Shown piece after piece: positions 4,230 through 12,749 of a DNA stretch of 64,000 nucleotides (within the stretch, counting starts at the first letter, position 1; every line of letters starts with the position of its first letter). A model generated the notes under the pieces. The model made no database searches. It was not told where the DNA came from and saw only the letters and a program-made list of their open reading frames with translations. The DNA lies in NCBI GenBank assembly GCA_020049045.1, contig JAIFLN010000019.1:3609-67608 (forward strand), written 5' to 3'. Both the position numbers and the translations under genes were made by a program. Source of the stretch: Spirochaetota bacterium. Its GTDB lineage: Bacteria > Spirochaetota > Spirochaetia > JABEVK01.

Positions 4230-4266
4230 AAAAAAAGACTTCTCCAGTTCAACACCGGAGAAGTCG
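4230..4266 (-). terminator. Rho-independent terminator downstream of secG
   Basis: Minus strand: 9-bp stem gacuucucc/ggagaaguc with an 11-nt loop, followed by U8. Confidence 0.5.
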
Positions 4267-4285: not shown

Positions 4286-4648
4286 TCAGTTGCCGGCGGC
4301 AGGAACAGTATCCGTAGCAGCAGGAGCTTCCGCAGCGGGCGCGGGCTGAGCATTCCACCATTCCAGGTTTGTTCCACCCTGCTGACGGGCAGCGGCGGCA
4401 ACATCACCCGTGTCAGGAGTCTTGAACAAGACAGCCAAACCGAGGGCAACGACTATGAAAAGTGCCCCAAGAACCGTAGTTGTCTTGGTCAGAACATTCC
4501 CTGAACGGGAACCAAAGGTAGATTGACTTCCACCTCCGAACATTCCAGCCAAACCATCACCTTGCTCATCCTGAATGAGCACCATACCCACCAGAAGAAA
4601 GGCAACAATGACGAAAAAGACTAGAAGAATGATTTCAAGAATACCCAT
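4286..4648 (-). CDS. secG: Preprotein translocase subunit SecG
   Basis: 120 aa, two TM helices and the conserved MFGGGSQSTFGSRSGNVLTKTT core, with an Ala/Pro-rich tail. Confidence 0.8.
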   Translation of the reverse strand: MGILEIILLVFFVIVAFLLVGMVLIQDEQGDGLAGMFGGGSQSTFGSRSGNVLTKTTTVLGALFIVVALGLAVLFKTPDTGDVAAAARQQGGTNLEWWNAQPAPAAEAPAATDTVPAAGN

Positions 4649-4666
4649 GAGAATGTGCTCCCGTTG

Positions 4667-5422
4667 TTATTTGTCGAAGGAAATGATCGGAATGAAAGTT
4701 TCAGCCTTGAGAGCCGCACCACCAACCAAGGCACCGTCGATGTCCGGCATGGCCATTAGTTCCTTCACATTGTCGGGTTTCACCGACCCGCCATACTGAA
4801 TCAACATAGCATCCGCGGCTTTCTTTGTATAGAGTTTGGCTACGGTGTCCCGAATAACCACATGAATGGCATTGGCATCTTGGGGAGTGGCTGTTTTGCC
4901 AGTACCGATAGCCCAGACCGGTTCGTAGGCAATCGTCACCTTGGCAAGGTCGGCTTCGGTCAGCCCAGAAAACGCTTCGGTAGTTTGGCGAATGACCACT
5001 TCGGAGGCCTTGCCCGCTTCGCGCTCTGCCAAGGTTTCCCCGTTGCAATAGATCACTTCAAAACCGTGCTTGAGAGCCAGCTTGATCTTTTCATTCACCA
5101 GTTTATCCGTCTCGTTGTGAAACTGACGGCGCTCCGAATGGCCGAGGATAATCACATCCACACCGAGTTCTTTGAGCATGCCAACCGAAATCTCGCCAGT
5201 TCGGGCACCAGTCTCCAGTGCGGAACAGTCCTGTGCCCCGACGAGAATCGGTGATCCTTTAACGGCTTCCTTGACCGCAGCGATGGCGGTGTACGGGGGG
5301 GCCACAAGAACCCGGTTTTTCGACGCCTTGACGGCGGGGATCAGCGAAGTGGCCAGGGCCTTGGCGTCAGCCAAGGTACCCCAGAGCTTCCAGTTTCCGG
5401 CCAAAAATTTCTGACGAGCCAT
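4667..5422 (-). CDS. tpiA: Triosephosphate isomerase
   Basis: 251 aa; AGNWKL, ILGHSERR and YEPVWAIGTGKTAT active-site motifs. Confidence 0.9.
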   Translation of the reverse strand: MARQKFLAGNWKLWGTLADAKALATSLIPAVKASKNRVLVAPPYTAIAAVKEAVKGSPILVGAQDCSALETGARTGEISVGMLKELGVDVIILGHSERRQFHNETDKLVNEKIKLALKHGFEVIYCNGETLAEREAGKASEVVIRQTTEAFSGLTEADLAKVTIAYEPVWAIGTGKTATPQDANAIHVVIRDTVAKLYTKKAADAMLIQYGGSVKPDNVKELMAMPDIDGALVGGAALKAETFIPIISFDK

Positions 5423-5513
5423 AATTACCTTCCTGAAATGTACTAAAGACCCGGAAACCGGGCACGAAACGGTCCAAGTTTATCGAAAAGCGGGGAGTCT
5501 GGCAACTGCATAC

Positions 5514-7268
5514 CTATAATGTAGGAAGGACCACGCGGAAGCCGCAGGCGCTGCTCCCGCTGGAGGGATTGTTGTAACCGCGACTTGATGAACGTGCATC
5601 AATTGAACTGTCGTACCAGCTACCACCCCTAAAGACTTGGTATAAACCAGCGGAAGGTCCTGGCGGATCGGTCTGCGCCTTGTTGGAGTAGCTGCCTTTC
5701 TTGTCCCAAACCCACTCCCATACATTGCCGCTCACATCAAAAAGCCCCAACTCATTTGGTTTCTTAGTCCCTACTGGCCTGGTCTGACCGCCAGAGTTAC
5801 CATTGCACCATGCGACCTCGTCCGAATTGCCGCTTCCAGCAAAGAGATTGTCATCGGACTGGTTTCCACCCCGGGCTGCGTACTCCCACTCCGCCTCCGT
5901 CGGCAGACGGTAGCCGTTGTTACTTTTATTCCATGTCACGTTGGTGCCATTGATGACATAGGCTGGAGTTCGTTTTTCCAAAATGCTCAGTTTATTGCAA
6001 TACGTTACCGCATCGAACCAAGTCACCGACTCTACAGGAAGTTCGTCACCCTTGAAGCGGCTAGGGTTAGTTCCCATCACCATTTTGTATTGGGCTTGTG
6101 TCACTTCGGTAGCACTGAGGTAAAAGCTGCTCACCGTCACTCTATGAACGGGCTTTTCGTCACTGTTGCCCATCGTACTACCCATTGAGAAGGTGCCTCC
6201 TAGAACGAAAATAAAGCCTTCGGAAGTTTTGGGTTTCAGCGGTGCTTGAACATAGCTGAAACCTACCACTACGGTTTGACCACTTGTGACCGTGAACGTC
6301 TTGTTTTCGATCTGGCCATCGGGGTAGATCATCGTTGCAGGGTAATCCCCTGGGGCCACCTGGTCGACCGGCAATGTGGCATTTGCAGGTAGGTTTAAAG
6401 TGCGGCCCAACAATGTCAGGGTACCACCTGTAGACGTTGATATTTTCAGTGAACCAGGAGGGACAGACAGGAATCCAAACGCTGGCTCTGATGAGGGAGG
6501 TCCGTTGCTAACAGCGTTACCAGCCAAGTACGCTGAGTCGAAAAACTGGTTGTACACCGCCGGGATCTGCAGGTTGCCGCTGACCTTTTTGACATCGGCG
6601 CCGGTACGGTTGAACACATCCTTAATCTCAAGTCCGGCGGTCCCAAGGTGTTTGAGCAACTGGCTGGTGAACAGACCGTTGCGACCTGTCCCGTCTTGGG
6701 CGATGCTTCCGACGCTGGTGGCGTAGGCGATCACGCTACCTGCTGGCTGGTTTGCTACCACGCTAAGTCCCCGGTTACCGCTTCTGGCCCAACCGAAAGG
6801 GTTGTCGCGGCAGGCATCAAGCACGACGACGTTGAGGGCGTTGCGAGATTCCTGCAAGGTGTCGAGGACGGCTTGGGCTGCCAGGGCTTTAGTCTTTAGA
6901 AAACTCTCGCCCTTGATGTCGGCGTCGACTGGGATCAGGTAATTCACCCCGTTGGATTGGACTCCATGGCCCGCATAGAAGAAGAACCCATAGGCACCTT
7001 TGGATTGCCCCAGCTGATTGCCCAGCCGCACGACGGCTGACTCCATATCTCCCAAGGATGCATTTTTGAGAAGATCCACCTCAAAGCCTAAAGTTTTTAA
7101 GCTGACTGCTATGTCGTCGGCGTCGTTGACAGGATTCTTCAGTGGTGAAACCGACGAATAGGCTCCGTTGCCGATCACCAGGGCAAACCTCCCCTGAGCA
7201 AGAAGGCCATTACAAAACAAGGTACCCATTAGCGTTATCAGACAGACCGAAATCACACTTTTTTTCAT
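5514..7268 (-). CDS. Secreted caspase-like (peptidase C14) protein fused to a SUMF1/FGE-sulfatase-like domain
   Basis: 584 aa. Signal peptide (CLITLMGTLFCNGLLAQ). Caspase His/Cys dyad motifs FFFYAGHG and VVLDACRDNPF. A middle beta-rich segment. C-terminal SUMF1-type motifs YRLPTEAEWEYAARGG, FDVSGNVWEWVWD and GGSWYDSS...ACGFRVV. Confidence 0.7.
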   Translation of the reverse strand: MKKSVISVCLITLMGTLFCNGLLAQGRFALVIGNGAYSSVSPLKNPVNDADDIAVSLKTLGFEVDLLKNASLGDMESAVVRLGNQLGQSKGAYGFFFYAGHGVQSNGVNYLIPVDADIKGESFLKTKALAAQAVLDTLQESRNALNVVVLDACRDNPFGWARSGNRGLSVVANQPAGSVIAYATSVGSIAQDGTGRNGLFTSQLLKHLGTAGLEIKDVFNRTGADVKKVSGNLQIPAVYNQFFDSAYLAGNAVSNGPPSSEPAFGFLSVPPGSLKISTSTGGTLTLLGRTLNLPANATLPVDQVAPGDYPATMIYPDGQIENKTFTVTSGQTVVVGFSYVQAPLKPKTSEGFIFVLGGTFSMGSTMGNSDEKPVHRVTVSSFYLSATEVTQAQYKMVMGTNPSRFKGDELPVESVTWFDAVTYCNKLSILEKRTPAYVINGTNVTWNKSNNGYRLPTEAEWEYAARGGNQSDDNLFAGSGNSDEVAWCNGNSGGQTRPVGTKKPNELGLFDVSGNVWEWVWDKKGSYSNKAQTDPPGPSAGLYQVFRGGSWYDSSIDARSSSRGYNNPSSGSSACGFRVVLPTL

Positions 7269-7480
7269 CGTTCCTCTCCGCCTTCACGGAGATTAGCACA
7301 GGTTTACACCCCCCGCAACAAGCGAAGCTACAAAGATAACCAACCGCGAAAATGTAAGGTGACGGAGGCCGTCGTTCTGGCTATGCCGAGCAAGGCGAGC
7401 CCCGCAGGCGTACGATGTGTACGCCGAGGAGCGTAGTCCGCCGCAAGGCGACGCCAGAACGGCGGAATCCGAGCCTTACC

Positions 7481-8740
7481 TTACCTACAGACTTCGATGC
7501 CTGGGAGTTTCTTGCCTTCGAGCAATTCCAGCGAAGCACCGCCACCGGTGGACACGTGGCTCATCTTGTCGGCCAAGCCAAACTTATTCACGGCAGCAAC
7601 AGAGTCACCTCCACCGACCACGGTGGTGGCTCCCCTACCGGTAGCTTCTGCAACCAACATCGCAACGGCCTTGGTGCCCGCAGCAAAGTTGTCGAATTCA
7701 AACACACCTACAGGCCCATTCCAAACAATCGTCTTGGCCTTGGCCAGGACTTCTTTGTACTTGGCGATAGTCTTGGGTCCGACATCCATGCCCATCAAGT
7801 TATCGGGAATATCAACACCTGAGATCGCCACAGCGGGTGCTGCGGAATCAAACTTCTCCGAACCGACATGGTCGACAGGAAGGACAATTTCCGAACCTAG
7901 TTTCTTGGCTGCAGCCAGAATACTTTTGGCGGTATCAATCTGATCATCTTCCACCAGCGACTTTCCGACCGTGTGACCTTGAGCTTTGAGGAAGGTATAG
8001 GCCATTCCACCGCCAATGACGAGAGCACTGGCGTTCTTGAGCAGGCTTTCCAGAACAGCAATTTTCGAACTGACCTTGGCACCACCAATGATGGCTACCA
8101 GGGGCTTGATGGGATTGGTCACAATGGGTTCGAGGTAAGCCACCTCTTTTTCCATCAGGAATCCACCGACACTCACCTTAAGGAACTTGGAGATGCTGGC
8201 AGTGGATGCGTGGTCACGGTGGGCGGTGCCGAAGGCGTCGTTCACGAAAATCTCACCGTAGGTGGCCAACTCCTTGGCCAGCTTGTCACGCTCGGCGGCG
8301 TCGTCACTGGTTTCTTCCTTATGGAACCGGGTGTTCTCCAAAAGGATGACGGTACCGTCTTTCTGGCCTTCGATAAAGGCTTTTTTGCCGAAACAACCAT
8401 CTTCCCCGCCGAAGACCACGGGCTTGCCCAGCTTGCCGGCCAGATATTCTGCCACAGGGGCAAGCCGGTGTTTACCAGTGATGTACTTGACTTCGTCAAA
8501 GGTCTTGCCGTCTTTTTCGGCCTTTTCCTTGGCCTTCTTGGCGTCTTTCTTGGGATCGCCGAGGTGGCTGAACAGGGTGATGGTTTTGGCACCCTTTTCG
8601 AGCAGGTATTGAATGGACGGAATGGCAGCCGTGATCCGGGTGTCATCCTGGACCTTGCCTTCCTTCATAGGAACATTGAAATCAACGCGCATAACAATGC
8701 GCTTGCCTTTCACATCGATGTCTTTGATCGTCTTAATCAT
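7481..8740 (-). CDS. pgk: Phosphoglycerate kinase
   Basis: 419 aa; KRIVMRVDFNVP N-terminus and overall Pgk architecture. Confidence 0.9.
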   Translation of the reverse strand: MIKTIKDIDVKGKRIVMRVDFNVPMKEGKVQDDTRITAAIPSIQYLLEKGAKTITLFSHLGDPKKDAKKAKEKAEKDGKTFDEVKYITGKHRLAPVAEYLAGKLGKPVVFGGEDGCFGKKAFIEGQKDGTVILLENTRFHKEETSDDAAERDKLAKELATYGEIFVNDAFGTAHRDHASTASISKFLKVSVGGFLMEKEVAYLEPIVTNPIKPLVAIIGGAKVSSKIAVLESLLKNASALVIGGGMAYTFLKAQGHTVGKSLVEDDQIDTAKSILAAAKKLGSEIVLPVDHVGSEKFDSAAPAVAISGVDIPDNLMGMDVGPKTIAKYKEVLAKAKTIVWNGPVGVFEFDNFAAGTKAVAMLVAEATGRGATTVVGGGDSVAAVNKFGLADKMSHVSTGGGASLELLEGKKLPGIEVCR

Positions 8741-8806: not shown

Positions 8807-9841
<1,035 letters not shown>

Positions 9842-9859
9842 TTACCGATTCATTCTATG

Positions 9860-9894
9860 AAAAACGGTGATTTCTGTCAATGTCACCCCGTTTG
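9860..9894 (-). terminator. Putative rho-independent terminator after the TPR/ybeX/ybeY/ybeZ co-directional block
   Basis: Minus strand: imperfect stem aaacgg(g)guga / ucaccguuu followed by UUUUU, immediately after the TPR gene stop at 9901 and before the gap promoter region. Confidence 0.4.
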
Positions 9895-9900
9895 CAACCA

Positions 9901-11943
9901 TCAGCGTAGTCCCAATAGGTCCCGTTGAAGCACGGCCGAGACGGGCAATGGAATCGCTGCAGGAACGCTCGGAGGTTCCTTGACCAGAATGACTTCATCA
10001 CCGACGGCAACTGTATCAAAGAATCCGGTACGCTCCAATTTTCCCACCGTCGTCCAATCGTCCGAAACGCCCGCGGTCCAGGTACCGAAACTATCGGTGG
10101 GATTCCACACGAACCACGAAGCATCACCCGTAGGCTGAGCGGCGGAGTCTCTCACGACCGAGAACTTCTGATTGGGAGCGGTTCCATCACGCTTGCCGAG
10201 ATTGATCAGCAAATCGGCACCCTGTCGCTTGAGAATGCTGCCCCGAAGTGGAAAAGCTGCAGCTGTTGTCTGAGCCGACTCTCTGATACCCAAAGTCACG
10301 GGAAGAGTCCCTTTTTTATACACCGAAAAACTTTGAACCAATCTGCCTGTCCTGCCGAGGTAGAGGTTCACCTGGGAGGAAAAATCCCGCAAGCCTTCCT
10401 TGAACACCACCAAAGCGAAATACTCCAAGCCGGCTTGTCTTGCCTGAAGAAAGGCATCGTTGAACCCTCGGGCAGGCAAAGCCCTGCGGTCCTCGGCGGG
10501 TGACTCCAATCGCAACCACCGAAGAGCATCCCACTCATCCGCAAAAACTTCAGCGTAGGCCTGTACGGCTCCGTACTCTGTCGTGACCGAGGCGTCAGGA
10601 TCGTAAAACACACCTACCGCATAGGGCCTGTACAGCCGGCTGGTACCGGAGCTATTGAGTTCATCAAGGGCAGCTAGAGACAGACCCCATTGGGAGGCCA
10701 GCGATTTCTGATACAGACTGCGTTGTATCTCAAGGTCATCGAGAAACGCGACAGCTTTATAAGTGGGATTCTGAGCTGCAACAGCCTCGAGTTCTTCGAG
10801 AGCGCTGGTTCGGAAACCCTGACGTTTCCAGATATCGGCACGTCCGAGACGGGCTTTGACGGAGAAGGGATCGAGTCTAAGAGCACGCCGGAACTCATCG
10901 AGGGCCAGGGCCTGAAAATTCTTACCCACAAGCTCTTGGGCCCGTTCAAGATGCAACTTGGATTGACTCAGCCGCAACGGGTCTTCCGGAGCAGTTCTCC
11001 TCAAGAGCCATGTCTCATAAGCCAATGCATACGATTCGTTTGACGGATCAAATCCCAGAGCCATTCTGAAAGCTTCTGAAGCTTCAGCACCTCTGTCGAG
11101 TCGGCTTAAAGCCAATGCTCTCAAATACCAGGCCCGGGGATCCTTTGCTCCTCTTTGTGGTGTTGGCCGCTGAATCACTTTGCTGTCGAGAGTCTGAACC
11201 GCTTCCAAGTTCTTCCCTTCGTCCAGCAATAATCTTGCCTGCAACAGCCAGCCACGCAGATGGGTATCGCCCGATAAAAGCAGGGATTGATCCAGAGCAA
11301 CCCTTGCCGCCGGGCGGTCCTGACGTCGGTACAGTTCTTCCGCAGCGGTGAAATAGACGCGGGGATCAGAAGAGTGGAACCGGAGGGCATCGGAATACAC
11401 CCGGTCAAAGCCCACACGGTCCCCCCGTGCCGACGCCACATAGAGCAGTGACAACAATGCCCGCAGGTTGGTGGGATCGTCGCGTCTGAGAACCTCAAAC
11501 TGAGTGGCCGCCTGTTCCAGCCGGCCTTTCATGACCTGGTATTCCGCCAAACCGAACCGCGCCGCCTGATTCTTCGGTTCCCGGACCAAGACACCTTGAA
11601 AAAGGGCCAGGGCTTCCTCATATTTCATCTGTCCCAGAAGAATTCGGCCATAAAGCACATTGACTGAGGAATTGAGCTGCCCCAGTTTCAAGGCGGCCTG
11701 CACCTGCTTCGAAGCTTCATCATACTCGCCCAAAGCGAAGAAAGCCTCCGAAAGCCCTTGAAGAGCGTCAAAATACCGGGGATTCGACCTGAGGGCATCC
11801 CGATAAGCGTCGATGGCTGTCCAGTAATCGTCGCGTTGAAAAGCAGCCTGAGCCAGGCGATAAGACTCCAAAGCGGTTTGTGCCTGTGCTGTGACCGCCA
11901 AAATGGTCAGAAAAAAAAATACCAGCGGGAGGGTTCGCTTCAT
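9901..11943 (-). CDS. Secreted TPR-repeat protein
   Basis: 680 aa. Signal peptide (LPLVFFFLTILAVTAQAQ), then multiple TPR-like repeats (AxxAYRDALRSNPRY...), then a beta-rich C-terminal region. Confidence 0.6.
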   Translation of the reverse strand: MKRTLPLVFFFLTILAVTAQAQTALESYRLAQAAFQRDDYWTAIDAYRDALRSNPRYFDALQGLSEAFFALGEYDEASKQVQAALKLGQLNSSVNVLYGRILLGQMKYEEALALFQGVLVREPKNQAARFGLAEYQVMKGRLEQAATQFEVLRRDDPTNLRALLSLLYVASARGDRVGFDRVYSDALRFHSSDPRVYFTAAEELYRRQDRPAARVALDQSLLLSGDTHLRGWLLQARLLLDEGKNLEAVQTLDSKVIQRPTPQRGAKDPRAWYLRALALSRLDRGAEASEAFRMALGFDPSNESYALAYETWLLRRTAPEDPLRLSQSKLHLERAQELVGKNFQALALDEFRRALRLDPFSVKARLGRADIWKRQGFRTSALEELEAVAAQNPTYKAVAFLDDLEIQRSLYQKSLASQWGLSLAALDELNSSGTSRLYRPYAVGVFYDPDASVTTEYGAVQAYAEVFADEWDALRWLRLESPAEDRRALPARGFNDAFLQARQAGLEYFALVVFKEGLRDFSSQVNLYLGRTGRLVQSFSVYKKGTLPVTLGIRESAQTTAAAFPLRGSILKRQGADLLINLGKRDGTAPNQKFSVVRDSAAQPTGDASWFVWNPTDSFGTWTAGVSDDWTTVGKLERTGFFDTVAVGDEVILVKEPPSVPAAIPLPVSAVLQRDLLGLR

Positions 11944-12749
11944 AAGAGTCCATCCGGGGCCACTTCGGTAGTAAGCTGAATTTTAACAGTACGGATTTTA
12001 TATCCATCCATATTCTGGACAATAAACTCAGCACCCCGCCAGGCAACTTTCTCGTAGCGGACCGGGATTTTTCCAAACAAATCAAAAACAAAGCCACCGA
12101 GTGTGTCAAAATCATCATTCGGTAGATCAAGCCCCAGAATTTCGTTCAGATCGGCGATGGAAACACGGGCATCACACAGGTAGGTCCGATCACCTATTTC
12201 GAGAACATCCTCCACTGATGTGTCGAATTCATCTTGGATGTCTCCGACAATCTCTTCAATGATGTCTTCCATACAAACAATACCGGACACCCCGCCGTAC
12301 TCATCTACGGCAACCGCGATGTGGACATGACGGCGCTTGAACTCTTTGAGAAGGCTGTCAAGTTTCTTGGTCTCAGGGACAAAATACGGTTTCCTGACAA
12401 ACGTTGAAAGGTTGAGCTCCTGCGGAATTTCGAGGTGGTTTTTCATCAGATGCCGCAGCAGATCTTTGACATAGAGAATGCCGGTAACGTTGTCAATTGT
12501 CTCTTTATAGACAGGAAACCGGCTGTGCCCACTTTCAGTAATCCGTTGCATCATTTCGGCGAAGGTGATCTCTTCGGGAAGAAACACAACGTCAATCCGG
12601 GGGACAATCACCTCTTTAACGGTGGTGTCGCCCAGTTCAACAACCCCTTGAATCATCTCTTTTTCTTCGGAGTTGAGTTCATCGAGCTGAGGTTCATCAG
12701 CATGGACCTTGCGGCCGAAAAGCCGGTTCAACAGGGTCTTCTTTTTCAA
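11940..12749 (-). CDS. corC: CBS-pair plus CorC_HlyC domain protein (YbeX/CorC-like, magnesium/cobalt efflux associated)
   Basis: 269 aa. Two CBS motifs and the C-terminal CorC_HlyC pattern (GGFVFDLFGKIPV...GYKIRTVKIQ). Lies in the conserved ybeZ-ybeY-ybeX arrangement. Confidence 0.7.
   Translation of the reverse strand: MKKKTLLNRLFGRKVHADEPQLDELNSEEKEMIQGVVELGDTTVKEVIVPRIDVVFLPEEITFAEMMQRITESGHSRFPVYKETIDNVTGILYVKDLLRHLMKNHLEIPQELNLSTFVRKPYFVPETKKLDSLLKEFKRRHVHIAVAVDEYGGVSGIVCMEDIIEEIVGDIQDEFDTSVEDVLEIGDRTYLCDARVSIADLNEILGLDLPNDDFDTLGGFVFDLFGKIPVRYEKVAWRGAEFIVQNMDGYKIRTVKIQLTTEVAPDGLL

Follow-up and report, generated by a model that had tools for sequence, protein, structure and literature searches.

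How a caspase-like protease came to stand in the middle of a glycolytic gene cluster, and what its C-terminal domain does there, are the questions raised by a gene of a Treponema-related spirochaete. The gene encodes an N-terminal caspase-like (C14) domain and a C-terminal domain of the type found in formylglycine-generating enzymes (FGE, SUMF1). It lies between pgk and tpiA in the gap-pgk-tpiA-secG cluster of contig JAIFLN010000019.1 (assembly GCA_020049045.1), of which a stretch of 64,000 nucleotides, referred to here as the window, was analysed. Taken as a whole, the reading that we regard as probable is that of an exported three-domain protease with a lectin head similar to that of TvpA, a variable protein of Treponema denticola. 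In this reading a segment of the head that resembles the variable regions of diversity-generating retroelements (DGRs) was most probably shaped by such an element, and the gene is a lineage-specific insertion into the operon. The analysis adds the link to TvpA and DGRs, the reassignment of a hairpin to pgk and the recognition of the pgk-tpiA junction as a recurrent insertion site; none of the findings overturns current knowledge.

The C-terminal domain and its variable-region-like segment

The C-terminal domain scores 175.6 bits against the Pfam FGE-sulfatase model (PF03781, cut-off 23.3). It has the overall fold and the Pfam family in common with FGE/SUMF1, but both catalytic copper-binding cysteines are absent. 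Its best match in the Protein Data Bank, by sequence as well as by structure, is TvpA (2Y3C; Foldseek E=3.6e-23, target TM-score 0.78, root-mean-square deviation 2.1 Å, 33% identity; phmmer 3e-36), which outranks every true FGE in the Foldseek search, human FGE reaching E~1e-18 and a target TM-score of ~0.68. The residues after RGGSW in the query (RGGSWYDSSIDARSSSR) include no CxxxxC motif at the place where the Streptomyces/S. coelicolor (2q17) and human enzymes carry their Cys pair, which we take to be Cys336 and Cys341 in the human protein, and the pair is missing across the whole family alignment of 51 sequences. Because the copper-binding cysteines are absent, the domain is read as a binding module and not as an FGE. 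The initial annotation had come to this view from the missing Cys pair; its account of a SUMF1-type domain mentioned neither TvpA, the closest known relative, nor the DGR-like signature of the C-terminal ~37 residues. On sequence comparison and on the structural model, the domain is a ligand-binding lectin fold homologous to TvpA, not an enzyme.

TvpA (TDE2269) and the query share the FGE-subclass C-type-lectin fold, the scaffold RGGSW-24 residues-GFR, the lack of the FGE cysteines and, on prediction for the query, export, and both come from Treponema-related lineages. They differ in that TvpA is a lipoprotein of ~330 aa consisting of the lectin domain alone, whereas in the query a caspase-like protease and a beta-sandwich precede that domain and the signal is probably of the signal peptidase I rather than the lipoprotein type. 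Likeness to other non-enzymatic proteins is also apparent: the best NCBIfam match is GldK (6.4e-26), although at 91.6 bits it stays below the cut-off of 350, as does GldJ (42 bits, cut-off 458). PorK/GldK and GldJ, lipoproteins of type IX secretion and gliding, are envelope-located and have an FGE-like fold; however, the locus has no type IX secretion context and the host is a spirochaete.

In a DGR, an error-prone reverse transcriptase (RT) copies a template repeat (TR) while its adenines are randomised, and the copy then takes the place of a 3'-terminal stretch of the target gene, the variable region (VR). FGE-type lectin domains form the largest class of DGR targets, and some of these targets carry protease domains (PMC5758913). 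In T. denticola, up to seven targets are scattered over the genome (PMC4891356), and some strains keep target genes but lack RT and TR (PMC4891356, PMC5758913).

A complete DGR of the HRDC type on an IMG/VR contig (L216, 8966-12677) served as the reference template. It has the Treponema-type architecture, in which a target of 625 aa with Ig domains and an FGE-sulfatase domain is followed by HRDC and RVT_1 genes, and 23 of the 27 mismatches between its TR (12505-12647) and VR (10703-10845) lie at TR adenines. Further TR/VR pairs in IMG/VR loci with FGE-domain relatives have 8 of 10 (L268) and 17 of 24 (L245) mismatches at such positions. The L216 TR encodes RVNRGGSWNNNANNCRVANRNNNNPSNTNNNIGFRVA, to which the window protein (QVFRGGSWYDSSIDARSSSRGYNNPSSGSSACGFRVV) aligns gap-free over its C-terminal 37 aa. 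The scaffold residues RGGSW, R, R, PS and GFRV coincide in the window segment, the L216 TR, TvpA and a hypervariable cluster of homologues described below, and the segment equals the TvpA VR in length and scaffold; its register with TvpA, with both the TR and the VR of L216 and with the hypervariable cluster is ungapped. From these alignments, the segment can be said with high confidence to be homologous to DGR variable regions.

The codons of the segment point in the same direction. The template encodes asparagine at 15 positions, which correspond to aa 546, 552-554, 556-557, 562, 564-567, 570 and 572-574 of the window protein; the residues there are F, Y, D, S, I, D, S, G, Y, N, N, S, S, S and A. 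Each of the 15 codons ends in a pyrimidine (NNY), against 57% gene-wide (binomial p=2e-4) and 13 of the 22 other codons of the segment (Fisher p=0.004). The five serines at template-Asn positions are all encoded by AGY, a single A-to-G step from AAY, although this observation was made post hoc. The ten template-Asn positions of the second TR, that of L268, are a subset of the fifteen, and across the family the combined share of K, E, Q, M and W is 7% at the template-Asn columns as against 20% in the rest of the domain.

Variability was examined among 90%-identity clusters of homologues. One of these (P0072/P0155/P0156) combines C14 and FGE in the manner of the query, to which it is 48% identical, and has its 15 variable columns exclusively in the last 40 residues; judged from the sequences, this is DGR-type hypervariation in the same architecture. 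The codon test gave 14/15 NNY for this cluster and 13/15 for a static homologue (L082). Between two contigs of the hypervariable cluster (L205, gene at 6084-7826; L206, gene at 4522-6264), six of the seven nucleotide differences within the 1,743-nt gene lie in the VR-like segment. The 11-14 kb contigs of the P0155/P0156/P0072 genes carry neither TR nor RT. The element on which these genes lie encodes a phage-type integrase, SSB and ParA, and a GC-rich hairpin lies ~55 nt after the stop codon of this type of gene.

The explanation that we infer for export, P1 specificity, lectin-head targeting, DGR history and co-transcription may be set out as follows. The product would be a Sec-exported protein of a Treponema-related spirochaete in which a clan-CD protease is held on a beta-sandwich stalk. 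Its lectin head would bind a protein or glycan ligand in the periplasm, on the cell surface or outside it, and this binding would deliver the protease to a target or retain it there. Specificity would be set by some 15 exposed positions among the ~37 C-terminal residues. In scaffold, length and codon signature the segment corresponds to a DGR variable region; adenine-directed retro-mutagenesis has therefore most probably shaped it, whether in an ancestor or, with a TR elsewhere in the genome as its source, at present. The window copy may be a remote or orphan DGR target, by analogy with those known in T. denticola. That the segment bears a DGR footprint seems to us somewhat better than an even proposition. 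That the gene is a live remote target, diversified today by a DGR elsewhere in the genome, is a rather unlikely extension of it.

A number of results weigh against this explanation. A search of the 64 kb for a TR, by blastn with short words and by an IUPAC pattern allowing the same base or A (up to three mismatches), returned only the gene itself, so that, in contrast to TvpA, no cognate TR or RT accompanies the query in its window. No open reading frame (ORF) there has an RT-like YxDD motif, and the RT and HRDC proteins of L216 found nothing better than E=0.99 by tblastn against the window. A pattern holding the exact scaffold codons gave 0 TR matches in IMG/VR, and the three closest homologue loci had neither RT nor TR within 10 kb. 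Of the clusters, the five nearest to the query are static, with no hypervariability at the C-terminus. The NNY excess weakens to p=0.05 when synonymous sites alone are considered, and the depletion at the amino-acid level gives p=0.09 by itself. Composition accounts for much of the signal, as NNY is the only way of encoding Y, D, N and F, and binding loops and surfaces generally have many Tyr, Ser, Asn and Asp residues. Both C and T are found at third positions, and TCA (three times), GCA and GGG are among the non-template codons, so that any mutagenesis could also be old. Two homologues (L081, L084) have indels in the segment, which makes the codon test inapplicable to them. For the remainder of the protein, protease activity and specificity are predicted from sequence and model, and export from a reading of the sequence.

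Most of these results would be expected if the protein were simply an exported caspase-like protease whose lectin-type binding domain is static and has had no contact with a DGR, its VR-like look being due to descent from the common TvpA-like fold and to the preference of binding surfaces for Tyr, Ser, Asn, Asp and Gly. The absence of a TR, RT or HRDC gene from 64 kb, the static state of the closest homologue clusters, the marginal outcome of the synonymous-only test and the close homologues that have indels and no signature (L081, L084) all fit such a history. It accounts less easily for the complete set of NNY codons at positions that were set independently by a genuine TR, for the uniform AGY serines, for the exact register with the TR, TvpA and the hypervariable cluster, and for the family-wide depletion at the template-Asn columns. 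This history is possible, but we do not favour it, and we retain a DGR-shaped segment as the preferred reading. If the DGR link holds for the subfamily, programmable targeting of proteases could matter in gut and sediment Treponema-related bacteria, where it would be relevant to changing surfaces, prey, phages or hosts. Were the window gene in addition a live target, a protease with a hypervariable head would be wired into the constitutively expressed gap-pgk-tpiA-secG operon, and a protease always on display would have its substrate or ligand specificity continually redrawn by retro-mutagenesis.

The probable exported protease and its relatives

The ORF encodes 584 aa from an ATG preceded at 4 nt by the ribosome-binding site (RBS) GGAGAGG. 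AlphaFold2, supplied with the alignment of 51 sequences (the query and 50 full-length homologues), gave a three-domain model with a mean pLDDT of 88.5, comprising a caspase fold (aa ~27-245), a beta-sandwich (aa ~270-340) and an FGE/C-type-lectin fold (aa ~350-582) separated by two low-confidence linkers. The fusion of C14 and SUMF1/FGE-like domains on a 584-aa ORF, as initially annotated, is borne out by two Pfam matches well above the curated cut-offs.

The N-terminal domain matches Peptidase_C14 (PF00656) over profile positions 2-228 of 233, scoring 124.9 bits (cut-off 21.4). Its best relative among solved structures is the paracaspase MALT1 (phmmer 6.5e-16), and the model has a caspase-hemoglobinase fold (Foldseek target TM-score 0.79 to MALT1 3v4o; pLDDT >90 over aa 30-150). 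The catalytic dyad had been described as intact, and its two residues, His101 (YAGHG) and Cys153 (LDACRD), are invariant in the 51 aligned homologues and align to the YAGHG and LDMCRK motifs of MALT1. Asp49 and Asp151 align with two acidic residues of the MALT1 S1 pocket, presumably Asp365 and Asp462, which belong to the three acidic residues taken to hold the P1 arginine; the third, Glu500, has no clear counterpart in the alignment. Given His101, Cys153 and the acidic S1 pocket, cleavage after Arg or Lys is probable. The domain is probably a catalytically competent clan-CD protease of the paracaspase/orthocaspase type, with a predicted preference for Arg/Lys at P1.

MALT1 and the bacterial orthocaspase MaOC1 may be grouped as the closest known systems for this domain. 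With MALT1 the query shares the YAGHG and LDxCR motifs and a beta-sandwich after the caspase domain, in the position of Ig3, although MALT1, a signalling protease of the eukaryotic cytoplasm, is activated by dimerisation. Gingipains are secreted clan-CD proteases with adhesin or binding modules, and the likeness to them is one of logic only.

The beta-sandwich has seven strands (pLDDT ~90) between the low-confidence linkers at aa 252-267 and 343-347. No Pfam model matched this middle region even at E<=10, PEGA included. Of the three domains for which a profile search had been proposed, Peptidase_C14 and FGE-sulfatase were thus found and PEGA was not. A PEGA match (PF08308) is present in the precomputed Pfam lists of some homologues. 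For the window protein, PEGA and other Pfam labels were set aside, and the name beta-sandwich is taken from the model alone.

The protein is probably Sec-exported, to the periplasm, the surface or the medium. Its N-terminus reads MKK, a hydrophobic stretch and LLA/QG, in keeping with a Sec signal. A basic-then-hydrophobic N-terminus ending in a site of the A-x-A/AQ type recurs in nearly all of the 51 aligned homologues, in agreement with the signal peptide annotated at the outset. A lipoprotein is judged unlikely from the sequences, the Cys of a candidate LFC/N site being unconserved in homologues and the residues at -3 and -1 atypical.

Public gene calls differ in the start codon (7229-7268, minus strand). 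The JGI product (P0001, 571 aa) takes Met14 as its start, so that the signal peptide is lost; that of NCBI/MetaClust (P0121, 584 aa, whole-genome shotgun prefix JFJP01) starts at the upstream ATG, which has a good RBS. The long form, starting at 7268, is favoured because the RBS precedes this codon. P0001/P0121 is the only sequence of the gene held in the databases, and no paralogue lies within the window.

The fusion itself, which had been presented as unusual, is common. Of 8,000 candidates scored in a homology search, 7,559 proteins were homologous at E<=1e-5. Almost all of the best 120 have both PF00656 and PF03781, and those that are named belong to Treponema, Spirochaetaceae or Spirochaetales metagenome-assembled genomes; besides the gene itself, the best match is 55-60% identical. 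In a 2012 catalogue FGE-sulfatase ranked fifth in frequency among the partner domains of bacterial metacaspases (33/671; Asplund-Samuelsson et al. 2012, PMC3501461), and the C14-FGE fusion was noted again in 2016 (PMC4933709), so the domain combination is not new. In cyanobacteria, orthocaspases fused to C-type lectin (CLec) domains are DGR targets or paralogues of targets (PMC7517822). Each of the elements discussed here, the C14-FGE fusion, TvpA-type VRs and remote or orphan DGR targets, has been described previously.

The query has in common with the metacaspase/orthocaspase-FGE architecture (PMC3501461, PMC7517822) the order of the domains, C14 being N-terminal and FGE/CLec C-terminal. Unlike the cyanobacterial orthocaspase-CLec proteins, which are often cytoplasmic or transmembrane and of which some lack the His/Cys dyad, the query subfamily is spirochaetal and has a signal peptide and an intervening beta-sandwich. 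No conserved gene partner is common to the three homologue neighbourhoods. A DUF4384 protein is encoded upstream of the homologue in L082 (8981-10000) and L083 (146-1165), and a FecR-domain protein in L081 (9108-9908), which hints at occasional partner proteins; neither is encoded beside the window copy.

A different role, that of a cytoplasmic effector of programmed cell death or antiphage conflict whose lectin domain senses an invader and activates the caspase domain, has precedents. Caspases are combined with FGE-type CLec domains in systems of multicellular bacteria for which a role as DGR-diversified sensors has been proposed (PMC7159879, PMC10907252). The window protein matches the generic PADLOC 'caspase' model at 3.9e-12 and, weakly, the NCBIfam model of EACC1-associated caspases (46 bits, cut-off 140). 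However, an N-terminal signal peptide predicted across the family fits such an effector poorly, no MoxR, vWA, STAND NTPase, adaptor or effector gene lies nearby, the neighbours being glycolysis genes and secG, and the neighbourhoods of homologues are heterogeneous. The candidate cell-death role entertained in the initial annotation is very unlikely in view of the conserved export signal and the lack of an NTPase or adaptor partner, and an exported protease with a binding head is preferred.

Enzyme models of NCBIfam were all matched below their cut-offs (EgtB 55 bits against 360, SenA 52 against 420, PvdO 63 against 500, OvoA 27 against 400), Pfam detected no DinB-like iron-binding domain, a feature of EgtB and OvoA, and there is no adjacent sulfatase gene among gap, pgk, tpiA and secG, the genes to which this check extended (the remaining ORFs within ~5 kb were left aside); such a neighbour is a weak criterion. 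That the C-terminal domain is an active FGE, or an oxidase of the SUMF1/EgtB/PvdO type, modifying a substrate which the protease then processes, has been given some colour by the strong Pfam match, by the enzyme names that public homologue annotations carry and by published speculation on combined proteolysis and formylglycine modification (PMC3501461), but it is highly improbable in view of the absence of the Cu(I)-binding Cys pair here and across the family, of the lack of a DinB-like domain, of highest NCBIfam scores of 55-92 bits against cut-offs of 350-500, of a best structural match to the non-enzymatic TvpA and of the missing adjacent sulfatase gene. The automatic labels 'formylglycine-generating enzyme' and 'nonheme iron enzyme' are misleading for these very abundant spirochaete proteins, for which the better description is that of exported clan-CD proteases guided by a TvpA-like, potentially hypervariable lectin head.

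Insertion between pgk and tpiA

Gene order was compared in 80 loci around pgk homologues from species-representative genomes, onto which the window proteins were mapped. In the closest sampled relative, an uncultured Spirochaetales metagenome-assembled genome (L053; pgk 91%, tpiA 90%, gap 90% and an upstream TPR protein 78% identical), the whole neighbourhood is present in order, but pgk and tpiA are separated by only 157 bp with no inserted gene. The gene is also absent in L007, L002, L028, L056, L009-L012, L014, L017 and L018; in the first four of these and in others, pgk and tpiA are direct neighbours. Because L053 and these other relatives lack it, the insertion is lineage-specific, as had been surmised before the comparison of synteny. 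The gene would have entered the gap-pgk-tpiA-secG operon in this lineage only, with a pre-existing hairpin of the pgk 3' end before it and the tpiA RBS shortly after it.

The cluster is not otherwise universally conserved, as had been assumed, since unrelated genes lie between pgk and tpiA in at least six spirochaete loci. They encode beta-propeller proteins (L004, 1906-6586), a chemoreceptor (MCP) with a solute-binding protein (L008, 2782-6493), a GH18 hydrolase (L013, 8254-9563), an M90 peptidase with an LVIVD protein (L015, 8257-12762) and, in two loci, CysK and CysE (L029, 8251-10275; L031, 8248-10116). With six loci carrying other inserts, the pgk-tpiA junction appears as a recurrent insertion site in the phylum, and the gap-pgk-tpiA-secG cluster as one that tolerates gene insertions in spirochaetes.

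The composition of the inserted gene is native. Its GC content (0.531), GC content at third codon positions (0.591) and codon-usage distance (0.204) all differ by less than one standard deviation from the 39 ORFs scored in the window, and the comparison with flanking genes that had been suggested as a check yields no foreign signature. The insertion is therefore old or of intragenomic origin, with no sign of a recent foreign one. A search of its boundaries for transposon-like ends, flanking repeats and target-site duplications found short chance repeats only. Insert-specific flanking sequence is confined to the leader with its RBS (7269-7356) and to about 5440-5513. The 91-nt spacer downstream of the gene, to which a weak hairpin had been attributed, folds no better than shuffled sequence (z=+1.19). 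The features of the locus are collected in Table 1.

Table 1. Features of the inserted gene, its product and the surrounding operon, in window coordinates
Feature	Position	Strand	Basis
Complete gene, exported caspase-like protein (predicted) with C-terminal lectin-fold (CLec) domain of FGE type	5514..7268	-	ORF list, Pfam, AlphaFold2
Predicted Sec signal peptide, aa 1-25, MKKSVISVCLITLMGTLFCNGLLA/QG	7194..7268	-	read from sequence
Peptidase_C14 (caspase/paracaspase-like) domain, aa 27-242	6543..7190	-	Pfam, 5.2e-36
Catalytic His101 codon	6966-6968	-	YAGHG motif
Catalytic Cys153 codon	6810-6812	-	LDACRD motif
Beta-sandwich spacer domain, aa ~270-340	6249..6461	-	AlphaFold2
FGE-sulfatase fold (C-type-lectin-like) domain, TvpA type, no catalytic Cys pair, aa 350-580	5529..6221	-	Pfam, 1.9e-51
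DGR VR-like segment, aa 544-580, QVFRGGSWYDSSIDARSSSRGYNNPSSGSSACGFRVV	5529..5639	-	ungapped alignment to L216 TR
Strong sigma-70-like promoter upstream of gap, TTGACA-17-TAGAAT, 11/12 matches	9852..9880	-	consensus match only
gap	8807-9808	-	Pfam
pgk	7481-8740	-	Pfam
Conserved long imperfect hairpin of ~120 nt directly after pgk stop	7357..7477	-	L053 counterpart 8258-8378 (+)
Leader of inserted gene with RBS GGAGAGG, no counterpart in L053	7269..7356	-	L053 homology ends at about 7357
Spacer between inserted gene and tpiA, only last ~15 nt (tpiA RBS) resembling L053	5423..5513	-	sequence comparison
Weak sigma-70-like site in 3' flank of insert, TTGCCA-17-TAAACT, 9/12 matches	5505-5477	-	consensus match
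tpiA	4667-5422	-	Pfam
secG	4286-4648	-	Pfam
Strong intrinsic-terminator-like hairpin after secG, 12-bp stem followed by TTTTTTTT (T8)	4237..4265	-	sequence

The pgk 3' hairpin and operon signals

The 212-nt spacer between pgk and the inserted gene has a strong fold (-97.8 kcal/mol, z=-4.3), as the initial annotation had noted. The accompanying view, that this spacer brackets the insert, does not stand, because the uninserted L053 has the hairpin too. The first ~120 nt of the spacer belong to pgk and are kept in that relative, where the counterpart is 78% identical over 123 nt and has z=-6.7; the hairpin is single-copy in the window. A compensatory change from G-C to C-G distinguishes the apical stems of the window and L053 hairpins, and the spacers have no match in Rfam. 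From these comparisons the hairpin predates the insertion and is part of the pgk 3' end. It may be an element for the stabilisation or processing of mRNA, or a partial terminator that splits the expression of gap-pgk from that of tpiA-secG; a conserved, unannotated RNA hairpin in this position may thus partition expression within the operon.

The sigma-70-like site upstream of gap is likely to be the operon promoter and the hairpin after secG to be the operon end, both being recognised by their sequence. No consensus promoter was found in the leader of the insert. Co-transcription of the insert with the glycolytic genes is the simplest reading, because neither a promoter nor a terminator flanks it, and the gene is probably transcribed from the gap promoter. 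The weak sigma-70-like site in its 3' flank, downstream of the insertion, could by its match to the consensus serve as a promoter of their own for tpiA and secG.

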